From: a virus
IMG/VR virus record: IMGVR_UViG_3300017973_000001
Span: 45,431-109,430 of that record
Length of the DNA stretch: 64,000 nucleotides
Reading direction: 5' to 3' (one strand)
Below, piece by piece: positions 6,716 through 37,511 of this stretch. The notes under the pieces were generated by a model. The model was not told where the DNA came from. It saw only the letters and a program-made list of their open reading frames with translations, and searched no databases. The stretch's first letter is position 1; the number at the start of each line of letters is the position of its first letter. Position numbers and translations under genes: made by a program.

Positions 6716-7774
6716 TTATGATTTTTTACGTGATTTTCCGTAAGTTTCTCTTGCAGAACGGTTAGCTAATTTATGGTACCCACGAACACATGAGAATCTA
6801 CCTTCATTAACGATTTCAGCTCTAGGGAAGTTTGCTTTTAATATTGGAGTTATGTACTTACGTAGTACGTCACAACCTCCCCCAGTAAGAATAATAGTGT
6901 CGATTTCACTCTTAATATGGATTAACTTTTTGTCGAGTTCACCTACTAAACTTTGAGCATGAATTTGATAATTCTCCTCAACAATTTTTCTAATATCAGT
7001 ATCATTTGAGATAAATCCGGATTGAACGTATTGTGGGATACGTGCAATATTTATGCTTTTACCATAATTAATTTCAATGTCGCTTTGAATACCGAGCCAC
7101 GCTTCATACATACCTTCGTTAAGCGTTGTATTAATTTCCGGGATTGGTGTAAATCCTCTTGAAGCAGTTAAATTCCATGTACGAGCGCCTAAATCAAATA
7201 CTATAGTAATTTTTGATAATTCTACACTGTCGGTAACAGAGCCATCATCTTGCAGTAGATAATTAGCAGTAGTACCAAAAGCCTGGTCCGTTATGAATGT
7301 CTTTTTAATATTTATAGCTTTTTGAATAATTGTCCCGTCAGCTAAAGTTACTTTCATTTCATGTGGTTTCTCAGTAAGTTTTTTTAATAATGCTATACGT
7401 TCCGGTACATATTGTTTAACTGGTAAGCCCATTACTAGTACATCTATGTCATCTTGATCCGGACCATTTTCTGTTAATAGCGTTAGCATTGTTTTAAACA
7501 GTGGGTCAAAATCATTTGCAAAATTATGTTTATTTTCTACGCCTTGCCACTTAGCTTTAGGGTTAAGATTTTGTGCTCCATACCCTACTAGCTTTCTAAT
7601 ATCATCACCGTATTCTACAGTTATATGGCTATGAGGCTCACTATAATCTCCGTCAATACCATTGTCTGGTTTTGGTACGAATTTGTGTACAAAATTAGGT
7701 AAAAATATCTCTAAATCGCCCTTTTTTCCTTTGAAATCTCCAAAGCCATCATCAATCCCAAGCACATTATACAT
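6716..7774 (-). CDS. parM: ParM/StbA actin-like segregation ATPase
   Basis: GIDDGFGDFK, LVMGLP, VFDLGARTWN and IILTGGG actin-fold motifs. Confidence 0.9.
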   Translation of the reverse strand: MYNVLGIDDGFGDFKGKKGDLEIFLPNFVHKFVPKPDNGIDGDYSEPHSHITVEYGDDIRKLVGYGAQNLNPKAKWQGVENKHNFANDFDPLFKTMLTLLTENGPDQDDIDVLVMGLPVKQYVPERIALLKKLTEKPHEMKVTLADGTIIQKAINIKKTFITDQAFGTTANYLLQDDGSVTDSVELSKITIVFDLGARTWNLTASRGFTPIPEINTTLNEGMYEAWLGIQSDIEINYGKSINIARIPQYVQSGFISNDTDIRKIVEENYQIHAQSLVGELDKKLIHIKSEIDTIILTGGGCDVLRKYITPILKANFPRAEIVNEGRFSCVRGYHKLANRSARETYGKSRKKS

Positions 7775-27189: not shown

Positions 27190-27270
27190 AATAAATACCT
27201 CCTAAAGTATTTTTGGAATTAGTAACTCCATGAGTACCCCTATGATCCAGGGAGGGGTACCTAGCAATCA

Positions 27271-27711
27271 CTAATTATTTTCGTACCATTCTTTCTGAGA
27301 TTTAATTGCTTTATTTAAACCATGCTTAAGTTTTTCACTTGCATTAACCTCATCAATCGTAAGACATAAAGCGTCAAGTGTATCTTCTACATCATAGGTA
27401 ATTACAAACTCATGATTTCCTAACTCATAGTTGAACATATCAAAGATATATCCGTCTCCCGTTTCATCACCTTCAATAGCTTCTTGCCTTTCTTTTTCGT
27501 GTCTATTCATCATTTCTTTAAGTTTTTCTGAGTCTGTACGTTTGTAAAATCCACCAGTACCACTAAGGCTATATATCTTATCTGTATCCTCCGGTTTTAG
27601 TCCAAATTTAGCCATACCTTCATTAAATTGTTCATTACTAAATGCGAAAAACATAGGAAACTCATTAACCTCTTTTTGTTGTTTATCTTTCAATACTGTA
27701 TATGCGTTCAT
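27271..27711 (-). CDS. conserved phage protein
   Basis: FFAFSNEQF..YELGNHE; SD GAGGAGG before MNAYT. Confidence 0.7.
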   Translation of the reverse strand: MNAYTVLKDKQQKEVNEFPMFFAFSNEQFNEGMAKFGLKPEDTDKIYSLSGTGGFYKRTDSEKLKEMMNRHEKERQEAIEGDETGDGYIFDMFNYELGNHEFVITYDVEDTLDALCLTIDEVNASEKLKHGLNKAIKSQKEWYENN

Positions 27712-27766
27712 TTTAAAATTCCTCCTCATAGTTAAACCCTCCCGGAAGGGGGAGGGCATATTTATT

Positions 27767-28054
27767 TTATTTAACTTCACTAAAAGCTACTAAGTCCTCT
27801 AATGCTTCATTCCCGTAAGATACTTGTGTTTCATGGAAACCCCTTTTAACAGACTTGATAAATTTATCTACATTTTCATCACTAGTAGGTAAGCCTTTTT
27901 TCTCAAGTGCTGACTCAACATCTTCTCTACTCCAACGGATAGTATCAAATACAGTAGATACATCACGAATTTCTTCAATGATACCCATACAACCTAATAA
28001 ACTTCGGATTTCACTCTCACTAAAATTAGTGTCTATTGTAATACTATATTTCAT
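27767..28054 (-). CDS. hypothetical protein
   Basis: IRWSREDV motif; SD present. Confidence 0.7.
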   Translation of the reverse strand: MKYSITIDTNFSESEIRSLLGCMGIIEEIRDVSTVFDTIRWSREDVESALEKKGLPTSDENVDKFIKSVKRGFHETQVSYGNEALEDLVAFSEVK

Positions 28055-28067
28055 TTCCCAATTCCTC

Positions 28068-28958
28068 CTAGTCTAATGTAGTAACTGCATATAACTTTTC
28101 ACTGGTATATTTTTCTGCAATTAATATAATTCTATCTACCATCTTTCTCTGAATATTGGTAGACTGTGTGAAAATAGGTAGGTCGATCTTCAACCATTTT
28201 GGGCGTTTAAATTCTGTATGTTCTAATAAGGTAACTCCGTTATTAAACTCCTCATTAGTGGTATAGATTTTAACCCACCCACTATCTAAACCGTACTGGT
28301 TTTCATCAAGACCTTTAACAGTATCAGCTATTTCACCTTTATACGGTTCAATACATTCTTTGATACGATTTTCAAAGTTTGTGATTGAGTCATTCAGCTC
28401 CGATAACTCAAGTTCACCCATTTGCTTAGTCTTGAATGAAGCTTGAATGGTTTTAGCTATTCTACTATCCATGCGACCTTCACATAGTTTAGTGAACTCA
28501 TCACGGGTAACACTTTCATCTGTGTACACTTCAGACCAACCGGACTCAACTAATAAAATTTGGTTTGCATATAAGCCGTAACTCATAAGATATTTATTCC
28601 CGGTTTTATTAATCTCATATCGGTAGATAAAAGGACAGTCACGATTCCACCAATCATATACAAACTTAGGTGTTAAACTAGGGGAGTAATTAATTTCATC
28701 ATTTAGCTCAAACCCATAGAATGTATCAATACTGTTTTCATCAATCTCAACTTCATTTAGGTAAGGTCTAATCTCATTTACACGAAGGAAATATTCTAGG
28801 AATTTGAGATTAATAGATAGATTGTATTCACCAACTGTATTGTGTCTAACAATACATCTACTAGGTACTTTAAATTGGGTTGTACCATCTAAAAACTTCA
28901 TTCTTACTCTAATCACTGTACTGCTAGCTTTCTCAATCAAAAGCTTTATCTTTTTCAC
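28068..28958 (-). CDS. hypothetical protein
   Basis: 296 aa; SD AAGGAGG, GTG start. Confidence 0.75.
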   Translation of the reverse strand: MKKIKLLIEKASSTVIRVRMKFLDGTTQFKVPSRCIVRHNTVGEYNLSINLKFLEYFLRVNEIRPYLNEVEIDENSIDTFYGFELNDEINYSPSLTPKFVYDWWNRDCPFIYRYEINKTGNKYLMSYGLYANQILLVESGWSEVYTDESVTRDEFTKLCEGRMDSRIAKTIQASFKTKQMGELELSELNDSITNFENRIKECIEPYKGEIADTVKGLDENQYGLDSGWVKIYTTNEEFNNGVTLLEHTEFKRPKWLKIDLPIFTQSTNIQRKMVDRIILIAEKYTSEKLYAVTTLD

Positions 28959-29170
28959 ATTAGGTCCTCCTTGTGCTCAGTGGCACTAATTTAGGTAATA
29001 GTTACCCCATAGTACTCACAACTATTTTCCGTTCGTTGTGAGCACTAGCAATAACTATTAAGTCACTGCAACCTATAATCCAAAAACAATTAGGAGTTGG
29101 AGTGTTTGACACTCCTTGATACACCCCACCCGTGGATCATAAGGGGGGAGGTGCATTAGGAATTTCAAAC

Positions 29171-29416
29171 TCACTTAATGTAAGCGTATTGTGGTGTACG
29201 TTCACCTAACTTGTACCCAATTAGGTCAGTATATTCTTGTTCGATAATATGAGGATTCTCTTTTAGTAAGTTAGCCTTAGCTTCTTCAATATCAGCTCCA
29301 GTAGAAAACCCTAATACTTGATAGTTTTCACATTCATCACCATCTTTAGGGGGAAGGGTAACTCCTTGTTCATTAATGAATATCCAGTGTTGAACGCCCT
29401 CATGCTTTTGTTTCAT
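29171..29416 (-). CDS. hypothetical protein
   Basis: ENYQVLGF; SD AAGGAGG. Confidence 0.7.
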   Translation of the reverse strand: MKQKHEGVQHWIFINEQGVTLPPKDGDECENYQVLGFSTGADIEEAKANLLKENPHIIEQEYTDLIGYKLGERTPQYAYIK

Positions 29417-29711
29417 TTTCTATTTCCTCCTTATTTTCCTCACCTAAATTGTGTACATCAAACACATCTCTTACTTTTTCCATTATTTCTTGCTTATCTG
29501 TTAATCGGTTATTTCCTTCTTCGCCAAAATCTTCACCCTCGAACAATTCCATAAAACTAACTGCGTCATCTAATGCCCAGTACAACATAACAATTAGTCT
29601 ATCCTTATCCGAGGCTTTCTCAATACATCGTTCAGAACAGAAGTTAGAACTTCCAATACACCAACCTTCTGTAAACCCATTATGGCAAACTGTACACTCT
29701 CTCACTTTCAC
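29400..29711 (-). CDS. zinc-binding hypothetical protein
   Basis: CTVC..EGW..FCSERC. Confidence 0.7.
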   Translation of the reverse strand: MKVRECTVCHNGFTEGWCIGSSNFCSERCIEKASDKDRLIVMLYWALDDAVSFMELFEGEDFGEEGNNRLTDKQEIMEKVRDVFDVHNLGEENKEEIENETKA

Positions 29712-29755
29712 TGGTTTTCCTCCTTATTTCCCACCCCGGAGGGTGGGGGCTCCTA

Positions 29756-30247
29756 TTAAAGTATTCCTCGTTCTACTAGCATATCGTCAATTTCACAAGT
29801 GTAAGCGTCCCATACCCACTCTTTAAGTCTACCGTTATCATCAAGGATACTTCTATCATTAGGTAAGTCCTCACCTTGTATTGTGAACAAGTGCTCCTCA
29901 CCTTCATCTACTACAATAATTTCGTCACGTCTAGGTGAGTATTGCACTTCAAAGTACGTCCAAGTAGAAGGCCACCCTAGAATTACCTCTACACTCTCTA
30001 AGTCCATGTGCTTTAAACCAATAAACGAATACATATGGTCTACGATAGATATTCCATTCGTCGCAACCCACCACTCATTACCAACACATGAGTAATAATG
30101 TAACTCTCTACCTTGAGGGTCTACATACTCATGCACATCACTACGTAAATCGAACGTTAATACTTCACCTTTCTCATCACGGACAACTTCAATTTTTCCG
30201 TAAAATTCTTCATCACTCATTCTTACAAGCTCTGTAACTGCTGACAT
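29756..30247 (-). CDS. hypothetical protein
   Basis: SD AAGGAGG. Confidence 0.7.
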   Translation of the reverse strand: MSAVTELVRMSDEEFYGKIEVVRDEKGEVLTFDLRSDVHEYVDPQGRELHYYSCVGNEWWVATNGISIVDHMYSFIGLKHMDLESVEVILGWPSTWTYFEVQYSPRRDEIIVVDEGEEHLFTIQGEDLPNDRSILDDNGRLKEWVWDAYTCEIDDMLVERGIL

Positions 30248-30365
30248 ATTAATTTCCTCCTTGTGCTCAATGGCACTCTAGTTTTTGAAGTATAGGTAAC
30301 TCCATGAGTACCCCCCGGATCGAGGGAGGGGGTACCTAGCAACTACCTATTGACGATTACCTTAA

Positions 30366-30623
30366 TTAATCCCCGTTTAAATCGTTATAATTAATCATGC
30401 TACGGCAAGCTCTTAATTGGTGTTCTAGTTCTTCTTTATCAACTTCAATCCCTGTATCCTGAATCCCTTTGAATACGAATAGTGAAACAACAGTTAGAAA
30501 GGTGTCGTACTGTTCAATTTCACTAAGAACTTGATTGATTTGTTCAGTTGTTAAGTTTAGATTAAGTATTTCTTTTGCAATCACTTCTACTTCATTACGA
30601 ATTGAAAAATCTGTTTTGTTCAT
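30366..30623 (-). CDS. hypothetical protein
   Basis: coupled to upstream gene; SD GAGGTG. Confidence 0.7.
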   Translation of the reverse strand: MNKTDFSIRNEVEVIAKEILNLNLTTEQINQVLSEIEQYDTFLTVVSLFVFKGIQDTGIEVDKEELEHQLRACRSMINYNDLNGD

Positions 30624-30967
30624 GCGTTCACCTCATTCATAAGTTTTTGTTCTTTACAACGCTTACGCCAGTTGAGAGCGTGTTTATTTTCTGTAGGGGA
30701 GAGCTTCAGTAATATATGGTCAGTCGCTCCAAAGTAGAAAGGCATAACACTCTCGTCCATTATTTTATACGAAACTTCATTACCTTTTTGTTCAGTTAAA
30801 ACAATAACTCCCACAACTTTTCCAGTGTGGGAGCTCTCTACTGCTAAATATACGGTTGTACCTACTTGCTCTGAAGCTTTTACCTTGACTTCATTTTCTT
30901 CTATCATATCAACTACAAATTTCTCAACACTAACTCCACTTGAAATACTTTCTGTCCACCAACCCAT
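30620..30967 (-). CDS. DUF6927-like protein
   Basis: MGW..YKIMDESVMP..LSPT..ALNWR. Confidence 0.7.
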   Translation of the reverse strand: MGWWTESISSGVSVEKFVVDMIEENEVKVKASEQVGTTVYLAVESSHTGKVVGVIVLTEQKGNEVSYKIMDESVMPFYFGATDHILLKLSPTENKHALNWRKRCKEQKLMNEVNA

Positions 30968-30981
30968 TATTAATTCCTCCT

Positions 30982-31320
30982 TTATTCAACCCAAAAGTAA
31001 GCATAAATTTCTTCGTTATCGTTATCCTCTTGGCAATAAGCCAGTACTTGCTCATCACCTCTAAGTAAAAACGCTTGTATCTTATAGGTTTTTTCAGTTT
31101 GACTATCGAACACTGGTATTGAACCACCGACTACCCAAAGAGCGTCATGCTCACCGTGATGGCTACCACTAATAGGAGCTACCTCGTAATCAAAAGAATA
31201 TTCAAGTTCAGTTAATATACACTCTACTATTCTTTGAATACCCATAAACTCTACGAAGTTCAGTTTTTCTTTAAGGTTACTTAAATCAACGTCTTGACCA
31301 ACTTTTTCTAATTCCCACAT
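30982..31320 (-). CDS. hypothetical protein
   Basis: SD AGGAGG. Confidence 0.7.
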   Translation of the reverse strand: MWELEKVGQDVDLSNLKEKLNFVEFMGIQRIVECILTELEYSFDYEVAPISGSHHGEHDALWVVGGSIPVFDSQTEKTYKIQAFLLRGDEQVLAYCQEDNDNEEIYAYFWVE

Positions 31321-31403
31321 AATGAGACCTCCTAAATATATTGGAGTATAGGTAACTCCATTGAAAGCCCACCGGTGGGGGTGGACTCTCTAGCAACTAC
31401 CTA

Positions 31404-31601
31404 TTAAGCATTAACTGGTGAGCCTACTGGTTTATATACATTCAACCCAATTTTGATACCGTCTTTACCGGGCACTGATTTATTTCCTTGTGTGCTTGCA
31501 ATAATTTGTGACTTACCACTTGATGATAAACCGTAGTCTTTATCAAGCTCAACCACGATAGTTAATTTGTTACCTTTGATTGTCATTTGTACGTTTTGCA
31601 T
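31404..31601 (-). CDS. 65-aa beta protein (SSSGKS..ASTxGN family)
   Basis: LTIVVELDKDYGLSSSGKSQIIASTQGN..KIGLNVY. Confidence 0.8.
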   Translation of the reverse strand: MQNVQMTIKGNKLTIVVELDKDYGLSSSGKSQIIASTQGNKSVPGKDGIKIGLNVYKPVGSPVNA

Positions 31602-31696
31602 TATAATTTCCTCCTATGTGCTCAACGGCACTCTGTTTTAGAGTTGATAACTCCACAAGTACCCCCATGATCCAGGGGAGGGGTACCTAGCAACCA

Positions 31697-32997: not shown

Positions 32998-33255
32998 CTA
33001 CATGAATAATGGCATGATGATGAAGAATATAATAGATAACCCACATATACCTCCAACTGCTAACCCTATAAGGAGTGTGTTCAGTATGTCTTGACCTCTA
33101 AGTACATAAGCTTTCTTAAGTAGGGTAGTATCACCATCAAATACACGCTCTGTTAATTCGTTCAAACTACCTTTGCCATACTGTATAGGTCTTGAATTAG
33201 GTTGAGCACCTTCACCCATACGGATTTTTGCTAACTTTTCACTAACTGTCATCAT
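32998..33255 (-). CDS. C-terminally anchored membrane protein
   Basis: C-terminal TM; SD GAGGT. Confidence 0.65.
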   Translation of the reverse strand: MMTVSEKLAKIRMGEGAQPNSRPIQYGKGSLNELTERVFDGDTTLLKKAYVLRGQDILNTLLIGLAVGGICGLSIIFFIIMPLFM

Positions 33256-33311
33256 TAAAATTACCTCGTTTCAATTTTCTGATTTTTTACACTCATAATT
33301 TTACGGTTACA

Positions 33312-33364
33312 TAAAAAAGAGAGCCGATAATGATACGGTTACACCGTACATATTTACCGACTCT
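33312..33364 (-). terminator. intrinsic terminator within the leftward unit
   Basis: GAGTCGGTAA..TTATCGGCTC-TCTTTTTT on the minus strand. Confidence 0.6.
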
Positions 33365-33410
33365 AAAAGGGGACCTAATAGATACTTATATGGGGTATCT
33401 GTTCAAGGCA

Positions 33411-33617
33411 CTAAAACAGTACCTTTACGCAAGAATGGGGGACGGGGAATGTACCTTTTGGGGTGTGAATATAATAGCTTCTTGCTCCCAATTTAGTACA
33501 CTCATATAACTTACCTTCCTCAATACGGTATCTAGTACCTTCCCATTTAACTACGCAACTTTTAATAGCTCTAATCATGTTCAACACTCCTTTTAGTATT
33601 TTGAACACATACTCCAT
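33411..33617 (-). CDS. hypothetical protein (start may be 33578)
   Basis: SD AAGGAG before MIRAIK. Confidence 0.6.
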   Translation of the reverse strand: MEYVFKILKGVLNMIRAIKSCVVKWEGTRYRIEEGKLYECTKLGARSYYIHTPKGTFPVPHSCVKVLF

Positions 33618-33667
33618 AAAAAGTTCAGTCTACAACTCTACCCCTATTCACAAGGGAGGGGGGGGGC

Positions 33668-33925
33668 TTAAAGCTGACGTACTCTACTAACAAAACTCAT
33701 AGTATAGTTCATATATAGAGTACATATAGATACAAGTCCATCACGTAACCTATTACTCTCTTTCTCTGCTAACTTCTCAATACGTTTGTTCACGCTATGT
33801 ACAAACTCTGCTGAATACATTACTCTAACTCTCTCAATACAAGTCAGTCCTTCAATTACTTGCTGAGCCACTGACTCCACATTTTCCATATATTCCTCTA
33901 TATCTAACGTAAATAGTCTCATCAT
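33668..33925 (-). CDS. hypothetical protein
   Basis: SD GGAGGT. Confidence 0.65.
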   Translation of the reverse strand: MMRLFTLDIEEYMENVESVAQQVIEGLTCIERVRVMYSAEFVHSVNKRIEKLAEKESNRLRDGLVSICTLYMNYTMSFVSRVRQL

Positions 33926-34029
33926 AATACCTCCGGTTATAGTTTAGTTCCTTATGAATACGGGTTGAGTTGTAGACTGATATAATAGCCAACCCAAAGA
34001 ACCCCCAGGAGGTGGGGGCGGGCTGACCT

Positions 34030-35222
34030 TGAAGCACAATCAAGACATATAATCATATACATATAGACACTATACACACTCACTCTCTCTATAGAGTCCT
34101 CACTAGCACCATACGTACAACATCACCGGTTTCTTTGAAACCTACTCCGTACCAATAGATAGGGTTGTACCATGAGAATGTGTAGGACTCGACGTTGAGA
34201 ATGATAGTGTAAGAGCCTCCGGATATGGAGAGTTTATGGTATGGGTACATAGAATCTGAGAGTGATACTCTAGCTAAATGCGTTCCAAACTACGAAACTC
34301 GTAACCATGCCCAAAAGCTCGACTTTATGCTTAATCTCATAATATCCATTATGTGCTTAGCCTTGCTACTAACAAGAGACACCTAACGGTGTCCCTACTT
34401 TGCTTACAGATACGGTAGGATTCTCTCTTGTTGCTCCACTGTTAAGTCGTGGAACTTGCTTATGTCTTTGTTCACTAAGTCGATTAGTATTTGAGTACCT
34501 TTATCGACAAGGGGTTTGCTAGCCTTAGCTTCTTGTCTTTCAAGTGTAATCTGTTTAATTTCTTCCTTTTGCTTACGTGCTGATACTTCTTTCTTAATAT
34601 CCTCGTCGCCTACTATTGCGAATACTTGAAGTTTGATATGTTCATACCCAGGAGCCTTCAGCTTTATCCATGCACCACTATTACCTACTGCATATGATTT
34701 ACCACTACCACTTCTAGGCATTTTCTCTAGGTTCTGAAGCATTGTGTCCATATCCCATCCAGTTAAGTCCATAGACATTTTAAGCTTCTTAGATGTAGAA
34801 TCCACACCTATCTTTAAGTTATGTACTGGCTTAGGTGCTTTTTCGCCTTTTACCTTAGTGTCTACTACCTTGTTTTGTTGATTAACTACTGTCATGTTAA
34901 TGACCTCCTATTGTTTTGTTATTGGATTATAAGGGTTAGATAGCCCTTGTTAGTAGCAAGGCAATATAAAGCCTTTTCCCCTATTTCGTCACCATGCCTC
35001 ATAGACTTATTCGCTCTAACCCTTTCGGGGTTGTTATGGCGTACATACTCACGTATGTATTTTCCTATGGACGGGGGAGCCGTTCGCAAGCCGGTAACTT
35101 CTTACTTGCTATCTCTAGTGGTTAGACTACTCACGTCTATATGTGGCGTAAGCCATAGACTGTTAATCTAGGTCACTATGAGGAGACCCAGTTCCTAGCC
35201 AATTAAGACCCGTTATTACAAG
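34030..35222 (-). ncRNA. candidate large structured RNA enclosing ORF 34404-34895
   Basis: perfect 17-bp inverted repeat 34360-34376 / 34946-34962, nested stems, GTGA and GAAA tetraloop hairpins; ends approximate. Confidence 0.55.
34404..34895 (-). CDS. basic protein related to the 65-aa protein at 31404
   Basis: KLKMSMDL..RSGSGKSYAVGNSG..IKLQVF; SD AGGAGG. Confidence 0.75.
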   Translation of the reverse strand: MTVVNQQNKVVDTKVKGEKAPKPVHNLKIGVDSTSKKLKMSMDLTGWDMDTMLQNLEKMPRSGSGKSYAVGNSGAWIKLKAPGYEHIKLQVFAIVGDEDIKKEVSARKQKEEIKQITLERQEAKASKPLVDKGTQILIDLVNKDISKFHDLTVEQQERILPYL

Positions 35223-36157
35223 CTATCATATACACCAGTTTAATACGTGGGGTGTCAACCCTAGCATAGTGAGACTATGCCCGTACATTGAAGTAGTGTA
35301 TAACCCTAACCCGTTTTTCACGTTTGGGAACTACAAGACCCGTTTCAGTGGGGTCAAACTACTATACATAGAGGGGGCAAGAAAACACGTTTTCCACGTC
35401 TTACCCCTTGCCAATGATGGAAGTGACACTTCAATCAAAGGAAAAGAAAGGGGGCTCGATACAGTACAAACCTATTAAAAAGGCAACCCACTATGTAATT
35501 TGTCAAAGAACAATGAAACCGGGAATCTCAAGAACTTTGAAACCCGTAAAGCTATGAACGGGGCTAGGAGCTCCCCGTGTCGCAACCAACAACTCGTTTC
35601 GACAACCGTTATGTATCACGCATTTCAAATCTTGTGTGCAATTTTTTTATTTATTTTATTTTTATTTGCTCTGTTTTTGGTCATGCCGTGGGCATGAAGT
35701 GGAAAAGAGCCAAAACCCTTGATATATAAGGACCTACCCCAGTGCCTAGAGACAAATTTTTAACGAAAATGGGCCGTGGTGGCATAACAACACCTACACA
35801 GTATTTTTGCTGAAGGGCAATTCGGTACAACCGTGCTTTTTCGGATCAATGACATACCATTGGTGTGTTTGGGGGAATTGGGGCGCTAAGGCTCCTGCGT
35901 AATTGGGAATTGGGGGTGGGGGAAAGTGGGAGATGTGGGAATGGTGAGACCCCGTTGGAGCGTTTCCGTGGGGCGTGAGGTGGGCCTGGTAGATCGTAAA
36001 AGTTTGGCATTTAGAATAGGGAACTTTTTGAAATCTGTAAAAGTTGTGGGTTTAGAATGGGTAACTTTTACAATTCCGTGGTCCGGGCACCAGGTAGTGG
36101 GAGCATGTTGGAGTATCTTTCCTGGGGGCGTGAGCTGAGATCATTGGGAGTTCGGAA

Positions 36158-36210
36158 AAGTAGACATTACCCTATAGGAAGTAGACATTACCCTATAGGA
36201 AGTAGACATT
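36158..36210. repeat. 21-bp tandem repeat x2.5
   Basis: AAGTAGACATTACCCTATAGG. Confidence 0.9.
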
Positions 36211-36487
36211 CTCTTATAAATATATTTATAGGAATATGTCTACTTTATGGGAAAAGTGCGAGACTCCTGTGGGTATAGTGGGGTGGGTGGGAACCAATGA
36301 GTGCGAGCAACCCGGAGTGATTGGGGGCCTGGTGCATGATCTATAATATAAAAACGGGGGAGTTGGGAAATACGTGGGAAATATTTATACGGGAAAATTT
36401 TTACTAAAGGGTAAATATGGTAAAACCTATACTTTTCAAGGTTTTGGTGTGGTAAAATAAGGCTATAATGTAAACACGGGGGACAAC

Positions 36488-36940
36488 ATGGACTTATACA
36501 AAATGCTTTTTGGACAGAATGTACAGACAGATAAGATTTTAGATTTAATTAATTTAAAGAAGGAAGATATTAGTAGGTTCCGTGATTGTGGAGTTGATAA
36601 GAAAAACCTCCTTATATGGATTCTTACTAGAACTGGTATTAAGAATGTGATGGGAGCAAGCAACGGGCACCTGGAACTTAAAAGCCATTTTCTACATAGA
36701 GTGAATGAGCCACATGATCCTACATATGAGCTTATTTATTTTACGATTCCAACTCTAGCTGACACTAGTGAGATAGAACATACACGGATTCCTAAGCTGA
36801 AGGAAATGTTTGAGCAAGCTAGTTGGGACGTTGAGAACGGTAAACTAAATGAAATGACACGAAAATTCATGGCCGACTTAGAGTTACAATTAAAAAATGC
36901 TAAACCTGGCCAAGTATTTTCTTTAATAGAGGAAGATTGA
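36488..36940 (+). CDS. hypothetical phage protein
   Basis: RFRDC..ILTRTG; SD GGGGG. Confidence 0.75.
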   Translation: MDLYKMLFGQNVQTDKILDLINLKKEDISRFRDCGVDKKNLLIWILTRTGIKNVMGASNGHLELKSHFLHRVNEPHDPTYELIYFTIPTLADTSEIEHTRIPKLKEMFEQASWDVENGKLNEMTRKFMADLELQLKNAKPGQVFSLIEED

Positions 36941-36941
36941 T

Positions 36942-37511
36942 ATGTCTAAAGCTGAGTACGATTTCGAGAGATTTAAAGTATTGTACAAACATAGAGGCGA
37001 GGCAGAATTTAAAGCGATCCAAGAGGACCAACGCTTGCAGACTGCTCTTAAACAATACATTGGGACAGAAGTATTAACGCAAATTAACGAGGACCCGGAA
37101 ATTGAGACTAAGATAATGCCATTTCTTATTTTCATTCAAAGACAGACGTTAATGAACTACTACCTAATGGCTATAAATAGAGATGACGGTGGTTTTAGTC
37201 TTTTACGCAGTGACTTTACTTTCATGGCTAGTATATCTACGTGCCTGGCTAATAAGCTGACGGCTCCTCATGTATCAAGTAAACGTATCATAGAACTAAA
37301 GAGTATTATGTCGCTCCGTTATAGAAACGCTTATAAGTTCATGAGTAGGTTAATTAAACTAGCCGAGGAAATAGACTGCCCTATTACCTTATGGACAGAA
37401 ACAGACCGTCCAACCGAGTATTTTACAAGGTATGGGTTCAAGGATTGTGGGAAGATTGGGTACAACGGTGAACGTTTAATGGTATTAAATCCGGGAGAAG
37501 GTTCAATATGA
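36942..37511 (+). CDS. possible GNAT-fold protein
   Basis: ITLWTET..EYFTRYGF resembles GNAT motif B. Confidence 0.45.
   Translation: MSKAEYDFERFKVLYKHRGEAEFKAIQEDQRLQTALKQYIGTEVLTQINEDPEIETKIMPFLIFIQRQTLMNYYLMAINRDDGGFSLLRSDFTFMASISTCLANKLTAPHVSSKRIIELKSIMSLRYRNAYKFMSRLIKLAEEIDCPITLWTETDRPTEYFTRYGFKDCGKIGYNGERLMVLNPGEGSI

Follow-up and report, generated by a model that had tools for sequence, protein, structure and literature searches.

Serial inverted repeats around small early genes and a boxA-like leader element suggest an rRNA operon-like early transcript in an uncultured Firmicute phage

In the virus recorded in IMG/VR as IMGVR_UViG_3300017973_000001, a small gene in the gap between two divergent gene blocks is enclosed by a long inverted repeat, and the question raised by this locus is what such a repeat does there. 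The viral genome comprises 109,430 bp and has terminal repeats; the window that we analyzed is a 64,000-nucleotide (nt) stretch of it, bases 45431–109430, and positions given below are those of the window unless a locus of a relative is named. The gene content of the window is that of a tailed phage. The terminase, portal, and major head genes run rightward from ~44.6 kb, and the genes that run leftward include a helicase and a ParB-like partition protein. The divergent blocks are separated by a 2.56-kb gap (33926–36487) in which the GC skew turns, and the sole open reading frame (ORF) of at least 100 amino acids (aa) inside this gap is a minus-strand ORF of 163 aa. A first-pass annotation of the window had read this place as one large structured RNA that carries the 163-aa protein in a loop. 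We favor a different reading, to which we assign a probability of roughly 0.5: the early leftward transcript would be organized like a ribosomal RNA (rRNA) operon (rrn), combining boxA antitermination with long-range stalks that are probably cut by RNase III.

The inverted repeat around the 163-aa ORF, here called bracket 1, is a perfect 17-bp repeat, exactly as the first-pass annotation had described it, and its extended form covers 28 nt at 86% complementarity (Table 1). When all inverted repeats of the 109,430-bp genome with arms up to 2.5 kb apart were ranked, bracket 1 was the longest exact one; by our own estimate, a repeat of this length is expected by chance ~0.02 times per genome. Its score exceeded those of 40 out of 40 dinucleotide shuffles of the locus. 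The enclosed ORF is a real gene, with an AGGAGG motif 8 nt ahead of its AUG. The exact 17-mer of bracket 1 also occurs in six other viral contigs, but these are chance occurrences, as the flanking sequences show no similarity. Smaller elements that had been noted along with the bracket are likewise present. The 13-nt near-direct repeat (34299–34311 and 34986–34998) is 12/13 identical and has no counterpart in related phages, and the small hairpins and the 8-bp complement CCTCATAG/CTATGAGG can be found as well, although alone they are not significant.

A scan with a portal profile returned ~80 related viral loci, and the clade used for comparison consists of 10 near-complete genomes with portal identities of 56–65%. 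Among named phages, Brevibacillus phage Jenst and its kin are nearest by portal, with 45% identity. Five relatives with portals that are ~60–65% identical carry a bracket around the syntenic ORF. These brackets are 24–37 nt long, with 26/29 positions paired in the genome that we refer to as G001, 24/26 in G003, 33/37 in G004, 31/34 in G009, and 23/24 in G007, and in each locus tested, window and relatives alike, the bracket scored above all 40 dinucleotide shuffles. The arm sequences are unrelated among the window, G001, G003/G004, G009, and G007; G003 and G004 are close relatives and their arms are near-identical. Twelve brackets from eight genomes show 88–100% pairing and unrelated arm sequences across lineages. 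Covariation was assessed helix by helix, the arms of different lineages not being alignable in register. Because the arm sequences turn over completely while their complementarity stays, we interpret this whole-helix covariation as selection on pairing and not on sequence. It backs the part of the earlier proposal in which long-range pairing places an entire protein gene in a loop where the leftward early region starts.

The window contains a second bracket, which encloses an 85-aa ORF and has 28 of its 31 positions paired; in the genome-wide ranking of inverted repeats it is the runner-up. A search of Pfam and PHROGs yielded no family match for the 85-aa ORF. As in the window, a second bracket follows the first in G001, G004, and G009, and second brackets are also present in G007 and G010. 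In G005 and G010, brackets surround a RadC-like JAB gene (Pfam E values of 1e-43 to 1e-45), and an additional perfect 18-bp bracket in G010 encloses a 72-aa ORF. G007 carries three serial brackets, one of which encloses three small ORFs. These data point to the bracket as a general way of packaging early genes that is not tied to one protein. Since the same design surrounds unrelated ORFs (the 85-aa ORF, the RadC-like gene, and the trio of G007), the idea of one RNA fold with its own partner protein has to be dropped. Two consecutive brackets of G007 (L178 3259–4718) have related arms with a GCGTGTTGTAATGAC core; the first of them holds the three small ORFs in a loop of 871 nt.

The placement of the arms follows a constant rule. 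In the window, G001, G003, G004, and G009, 29–50 nt separate the end of the 5' arm from the AUG, with a GGAG(G) site in this unpaired spacer, and 9–28 nt separate the stop codon from the 3' arm. Since the arms lie outside the ribosome-binding site (RBS) and the stop codon, the helix would close a complete translation unit without occluding initiation. The enclosed genes are co-oriented with the operon in all eight bracket-bearing genomes. Such avoidance of the translated unit by both arms fits a design at the level of the messenger RNA (mRNA). Further points for the RNA level are the serial arrangement of modules in one operon, the boxA-like element described below, and the better fold of the sense strand, with −396 kcal/mol for the minus strand of 33926–35300 versus −355 kcal/mol for the plus strand. 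We consider it likely that the bracket helices form in RNA.

In addition to the brackets, the clade shares a 16-nt hairpin, CAUAAU-N4-AUUAUG, with one exact copy per genome. It is located 4–23 nt 3' of bracket 1 in the window, G001, G003, G004, and G009, whereas the copy of G007, 13 nt past the 3' arm, has one mismatch. In G005, G008, G010, and G006 (the last with one mismatch), the hairpin occupies the syntenic place with its loop orientation reversed, and in G004 and G010 it stands directly between two bracket helices. Jenst-type phages lack it at the syntenic place. Scanning viral contigs with the hairpin motif recovered just the four already known relatives; a 103-nt inverted repeat in a giant-virus contig that emerged from the same scan is unrelated. 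We also considered CATAAT as a −10 box and rejected it, as a plausible −35 box exists in the window only and in none of the relatives. Given its palindromic stem and its occurrence in both loop orientations, the motif may be a site in duplex DNA.

Upstream of the first bracket, a leader block of ~100 nt is common to G001, G003, G004, and G009, and its profile matches the window (nhmmer E value of 0.0011). This conserved block probably lies at or near the early leftward promoter; neither sigma-70-like promoters nor simple terminators show enrichment in the region 33000–37000. Farther along the leader lies the 13-mer UGUUCUUUGACAA; nowhere else does the 109-kb genome match TGYTCTTTRAMAA exactly. 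The consensus of boxA is UGCUCUUUAACAA in Escherichia coli and of the UGUUCUUUGAAAA type in Firmicutes, and in rrn operons this element is the nucleation site of a termination-resistant Nus-factor complex. On the sense strand of 7 of the 10 clade genomes, a boxA-like element with at most two mismatches lies downstream of the conserved block and ahead of the first bracket; the consensus in the clade is UGYUCUUUGAYAA, and the background rate is 0.22 per kb. Hairpins precede the boxA-like 13-mer, but no conserved boxB or boxC is definable. The 13-mer is overlapped by a tandem 20-nt direct repeat at 35506–35549 that is 80% identical and has AGUUCUUGAGA as its upstream copy; the two copies may represent boxA-like elements in tandem.

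An antitermination signature does stand at the head of this operon, as the first-pass annotation had supposed, but this signature, the boxA-like 13-mer, lies outside the coordinates that the annotation had marked. The boxA-like signature points to host Nus factors as the putative partners and not to a put- or conAn-like RNA. One of the internal terminators that had been listed in support, at 33312–33364, is a long hairpin with a U-run on the minus strand downstream of a 68-aa ORF. It looks plausible by eye but does not appear in a simple terminator scan, the loop being too long.

According to the favored reading, the promoter-proximal conserved block would head the leftward early transcript on the minus strand, and the boxA-like element would recruit host NusB/NusE to give a termination-resistant transcription complex. 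Serial modules would follow, in each of which sequence upstream of the RBS pairs with sequence downstream of the stop codon, and each near-perfect helix of 17–37 bp would close a whole gene into a loop. The helices would serve as stalks for processing, with host RNase III as the most likely enzyme. It is plausible that the ORF-containing loop is excised or processed, and cleavage would set free messages of one gene each, with both ends still paired and thereby shielded from exonucleases. The CAUAAU-N4-AUUAUG hairpin, which stands between stalks 1 and 2, would be recognized by some factor. Pairing in the RNA, binding of Nus factors to boxA, cleavage, and this outcome are steps that we infer. 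More tentative is a detailed mechanism in which the boxA-nucleated Nus complex carries the 5' arm along with RNA polymerase until the 3' arm is reached and RNase III then excises end-paired, exonuclease-resistant early messages. This would amount to a distinct, portable mRNA architecture in which the clade borrows the rRNA transcription and maturation machinery of the host for protein-coding genes and uses CAUAAU-N4-AUUAUG as a dedicated recognition element; we regard it as less likely than not.

The rrn operons of bacteria provide the closest model. They carry a boxB-boxA-boxC antitermination site, and leader–trailer helices around the 16S and 23S rRNA are cut by RNase III. The phage locus resembles them in having a boxA-type 13-mer on the transcribed strand of the leader and long upstream–downstream helices around a payload, with several such modules in series in one transcript. 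In contrast to rrn operons, the payloads of the phage are protein-coding ORFs with free RBSs and not rRNA (Rfam detected no rRNA), boxA lies hundreds of nucleotides from the first stalk, neither boxC nor boxB was identified, and the phage features are known from sequence alone. The finding would, in short, be one of rRNA-type stalks and boxA applied to mRNAs. The proposed outcome has a counterpart in the early mRNA of T7, where cuts by host RNase III (R0.3 to R1.3) result in stable single-gene messages that end in duplex remnants. In both cases, an early polycistronic phage transcript would be cut by host RNase III; however, the T7 sites are local intergenic hairpins, whereas the arms described here are 350–900 nt apart and enclose a gene.

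Several observations weigh against an rrn-like organization. Three of the 10 clade genomes have no boxA-like match at up to two mismatches. In the window, the boxA-like 13-mer is ~540 nt away from the first stalk; in rrn operons, boxC adjoins boxA and forms part of the stalk. G006 and G008 carry the conserved hairpin but no bracket that is detectable at the thresholds used. Neither the long hairpins at 34030–34322 nor the conserved hairpin is accounted for by the model, and the comparison rests on about 10 related genomes, several of which are close pairs. Finally, the mismatches in the 12 brackets are G-U-compatible in 12 cases when read in the sense strand and in 7 cases when read in the antisense strand, and 12 are of other kinds. 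There is no clear strand bias in these mismatches, and a constraint at the DNA level could therefore be at work.

Such a constraint is the core of an alternative that we regard as unlikely, in which the inverted repeats act in DNA as the ends of exchangeable or invertible gene cassettes and recombination or gene conversion, not selection on an RNA helix, keeps the arms matched. In this case, CATAAT-N4-ATTATG, a unique 16-bp palindrome, could be a protein-binding or recombination site, and its occurrence in either loop orientation is what a symmetric DNA site would show. Related phages have different bracketed genes, of the 163-aa family or RadC-like, at the same genomic place, as cassette exchange would produce, and the common arm sequence of the two G007 brackets fits as well. 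The genome does encode one tyrosine recombinase, but this sole enzyme is located ~53 kb away, and no serine recombinase is present. Moreover, the arms are unrelated between lineages, unlike the sites of transposases or recombinases, and the enclosed genes have the orientation of the operon in 8/8 bracketed genomes. No target-site duplication is conserved; the flanking direct repeat was tried as a candidate and rejected because it is not conserved in the relatives. The position of the arms outside the RBS and stop codon follows an RNA-level logic, yet a cassette would carry its RBS too. When sequencing runs were searched with the phage sequence, a single run matched, a DNA metagenome from peat that is probably the source of the phage sequence, and no RNA sequencing runs were listed as containing it. 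Contigs of the peat run over the locus show no joint, inversion, or variant, contigs being assemblies that drop rare forms. Two further DNA-level candidates were discarded, a protelomerase target in view of the asymmetric center of the palindrome and an IS200-type TnpA in view of the lack of an HUH motif and of a Pfam match.

Pairing between both untranslated ends of one message has precedents in Firmicutes. In icaR of Staphylococcus aureus, pairing of the 5' and 3' untranslated regions (UTRs) masks the Shine-Dalgarno sequence and creates an RNase III substrate (PMC3868564), and in hbs of Bacillus subtilis 14 bp of 5'/3'-UTR pairing modulate the access of RNase Y (PMC5737220). The phage helices share with both the complementarity of the untranslated ends but are longer, serial, and placed inside an operon. 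Masking of the icaR type was rejected for the phage, as in 5/5 aligned loci the Shine-Dalgarno sequence is left unpaired, in the spacer that separates the 5' arm from the AUG. The effect of the hbs interaction on RNase Y cleavage is the precedent for another alternative, according to which the helices form in RNA but stay uncut, either as insulators of the RBS context or as end-to-end clamps against RNase J1, RNase Y, or PNPase, the action of which they would slow. Both the covariation and the placement of the arms speak for this alternative as well, and the phage encodes no RNase III of its own. We nevertheless consider uncut helices improbable: near-perfect duplexes of 17–37 bp are the classic substrate of RNase III, which is near-universal in bacteria, and internal uncut stems in a polycistronic transcript leave no free ends that need protection.

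The alternative advanced in the first-pass annotation was a large RNA at 34030–35260 that, together with its looped partner protein, acts as a put/conAn-type antiterminator or else is a non-coding RNA resembling GOLLD or ROOL. It is the least probable of the explanations considered here. The region does head a long leftward operon with terminator-like hairpins, and six genomes have conserved the 163-aa ORF together with its bracket. The 3' flank (34030–34359), which folds into two long imperfect hairpins, is also unusually stable, with −106.2 kcal/mol compared to −81.6 kcal/mol for shuffled sequences (z = −5.0 for the minus and −2.7 for the plus strand). However, the 5' flank (34963–35262) is no more stable than its shuffles (z = −0.17 for the minus and +0.04 for the plus strand), and except for the 16-nt hairpin the flanks cannot be aligned with those of the relatives. 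Thus, the ~700 nt of flanking sequence do not behave as one large structured RNA. A similar pair of long hairpins is present in G001 (z = −7.9) and missing in G003 and G009. The leaders of the relatives have z values between −1.8 and +1.2 and are not alignable. Rfam, which the first-pass annotation had named as a check, yielded no match at gathering score in the window, nothing relevant at E values up to 10 in 33600–36500, and no match in the bracket and leader regions of the relatives.

Taken together, these results speak against both forms of the large-RNA proposal: a put/conAn-type antiterminator would have to reside in a leader with z ~0 that is unalignable in relatives and unmatched in Rfam, and a GOLLD/ROOL-type RNA finds no covariance-model match. 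The unrelated genes in the brackets leave no fixed protein partner, the 163-aa protein has no known RNA-binding or antiterminator fold, as judged from a moderate model with a predicted local distance difference test (pLDDT) score of 70, and boxA offers a simpler antitermination signal upstream. A group I or II intron with a looped ORF was likewise rejected, as no intron model matched at E values up to 10 and no open frames abut the element, and so was a retron, as there is no reverse transcriptase.

Several phage systems invite comparison with the rrn-like reading. The nut site of lambda includes a boxA that is bound by NusB–NusE (PMC8632103). The nut/N system of lambda and put of HK022 share with the locus described here a cis-acting RNA signal that heads a phage early operon, but neither a boxB/N pair nor a put-like two-hairpin RNA was identified in the phage, and those systems have no counterpart of the bracket helices. 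In the PeSL cassettes of T4-type phages, a single conserved promoter–terminator motif recurs as a direct repeat (PMC2839356, PMC4122927). As in these cassettes, recurring non-coding motifs delimit variable early ORFs, and close relatives carry different genes at a given place; in contrast, each bracket is an inverted repeat private to its gene. In our literature searches, we did not find gene-enclosing stems in phage early operons described.

If the stems work as proposed, the phage would need no more than the Nus factors and RNase III of its host to turn one antiterminated transcript into early messages that are stable and dosed separately. This would extend rRNA-operon logic to mRNAs and explain the long, puzzling inverted repeats around small early genes of uncultured phages, and it would provide a compact transferable part with which genes of synthetic operons could be stabilized or insulated. 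The conserved hairpin and the uncharacterized family of ~140–165-aa proteins offer new entry points to the first minutes of infection by a little-known group of Firmicute phages or phage-plasmids of ~100–125 kb.

Table 1. Positions of the bracket arms, enclosed ORFs, hairpins, and leader elements in the window.
Feature	Position	Strand	Basis and remarks
Conserved leader block (CAAAAAU...GUAGGUGU...GGCACUGGGG)	35732–35823	−	Profile match
boxA-like 13-mer UGUUCUUUGACAA	35500–35512	−	Early leader
5' arm of bracket 1	34946–34962	−	Inverted repeat; weaker extension to 34935
163-aa ORF, uncharacterized family of 138–165-aa proteins	34404–34895	−	AGGAGG at 34904–34909; syntenic homologues
3' arm of bracket 1	34360–34376	−	Inverted repeat; weaker extension to 34387; starts 27 nt past stop codon
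Conserved hairpin CAUAAU-GGAU-AUUAUG	34338–34353	−	6 nt past 3' arm of bracket 1
Two long imperfect hairpins between brackets 1 and 2	34030–34322	−	Fold compared with shuffles
5' arm of bracket 2	33950–33980	−	31-nt inverted repeat
85-aa ORF inside bracket 2	33668–33925	−	GGAGG RBS in the spacer from the 5' arm to the start codon
3' arm of bracket 2	33625–33655	−	31-nt inverted repeat

The 163-aa protein belongs to an uncharacterized family. An exhaustive HMMER search with the single protein detected two weak relatives, and a profile search extended the family to at least 11 members of 138–165 aa. They include the family protein of G001, which is listed under Moorella sp. E308F, and another listed under Solibacillus silvestris; the contigs that encode them measure ~100–115 kb. 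In G001, G003, G004, and G009, the family member is encoded 11–15 kb from the portal gene on the opposite strand, and a weak homologue occupies this position in G007. No match was obtained for the 163-aa ORF or its neighbors in Pfam and PHROGs, for the region and the 163-aa ORF in GenBank phages (blastn and tblastn), or for the family members P0009 and P0005 in plasmids (tblastn), and P0009 was without a match in phages too. A word-index protein search with the 163-aa protein returned only the protein itself, a viral scan with the single protein and two metagenome scans returned no match, and a genome scan produced only a doubtful C-terminal match. Structure prediction gave a small beta domain with long helices after it (two models of moderate confidence, pLDDT 69–70). 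Foldseek retrieved no PDB structure at E values up to 0.001; in a wide structural search, the best Z score was 3.0, and a protein atlas gave no usable match. A 65-aa ORF at 31404–31601 on the minus strand matches the core domain of the family (profile E value of 3e-5 in a 10-sequence search) and, by this similarity, is a short paralogue that corresponds to this domain.

The ParB-like partition protein of the window is encoded at 6716–7774 on the minus strand (PHROG 691). Several relatives, among G003–G006 and G010, are classed as proviruses or lie on ~100-kb contigs of Moorella or Solibacillus. Considering the ParB-like protein and the provirus-class relatives, the clade may consist of phage-plasmids. 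On the rightward side of the divergent gap, relatives carry transfer RNA (tRNA) genes, 14 in G004 (L108 6662–8911) and 1 in G001 (L021 6587–6728), the latter followed by a borderline match to the DUF3800-VIII RNA (43.2 bits versus a cut-off of 40.2); no tRNA genes were found in the window.

Two further repeats were observed in the window. At 36158–36245, a 21-bp unit (AAGTAGACATTACCCTATAGG) is present in 2.5 perfect copies and is followed by a 46-bp imperfect palindrome of the same unit. The element sits in a G-rich stretch upstream of the rightward genes, the contigs of the peat run break exactly there, and it could be an operator, an iteron, or a recombination site. On the minus strand of 27225–31693, the combination of UUGCUAG, a GC-rich hairpin, and UGGAGU occurs in five intergenic copies compared to 0.5 expected by chance. 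The early operon thus has an element that recurs between its genes, and the UGGAGU of this element may be the RBS of the next gene.

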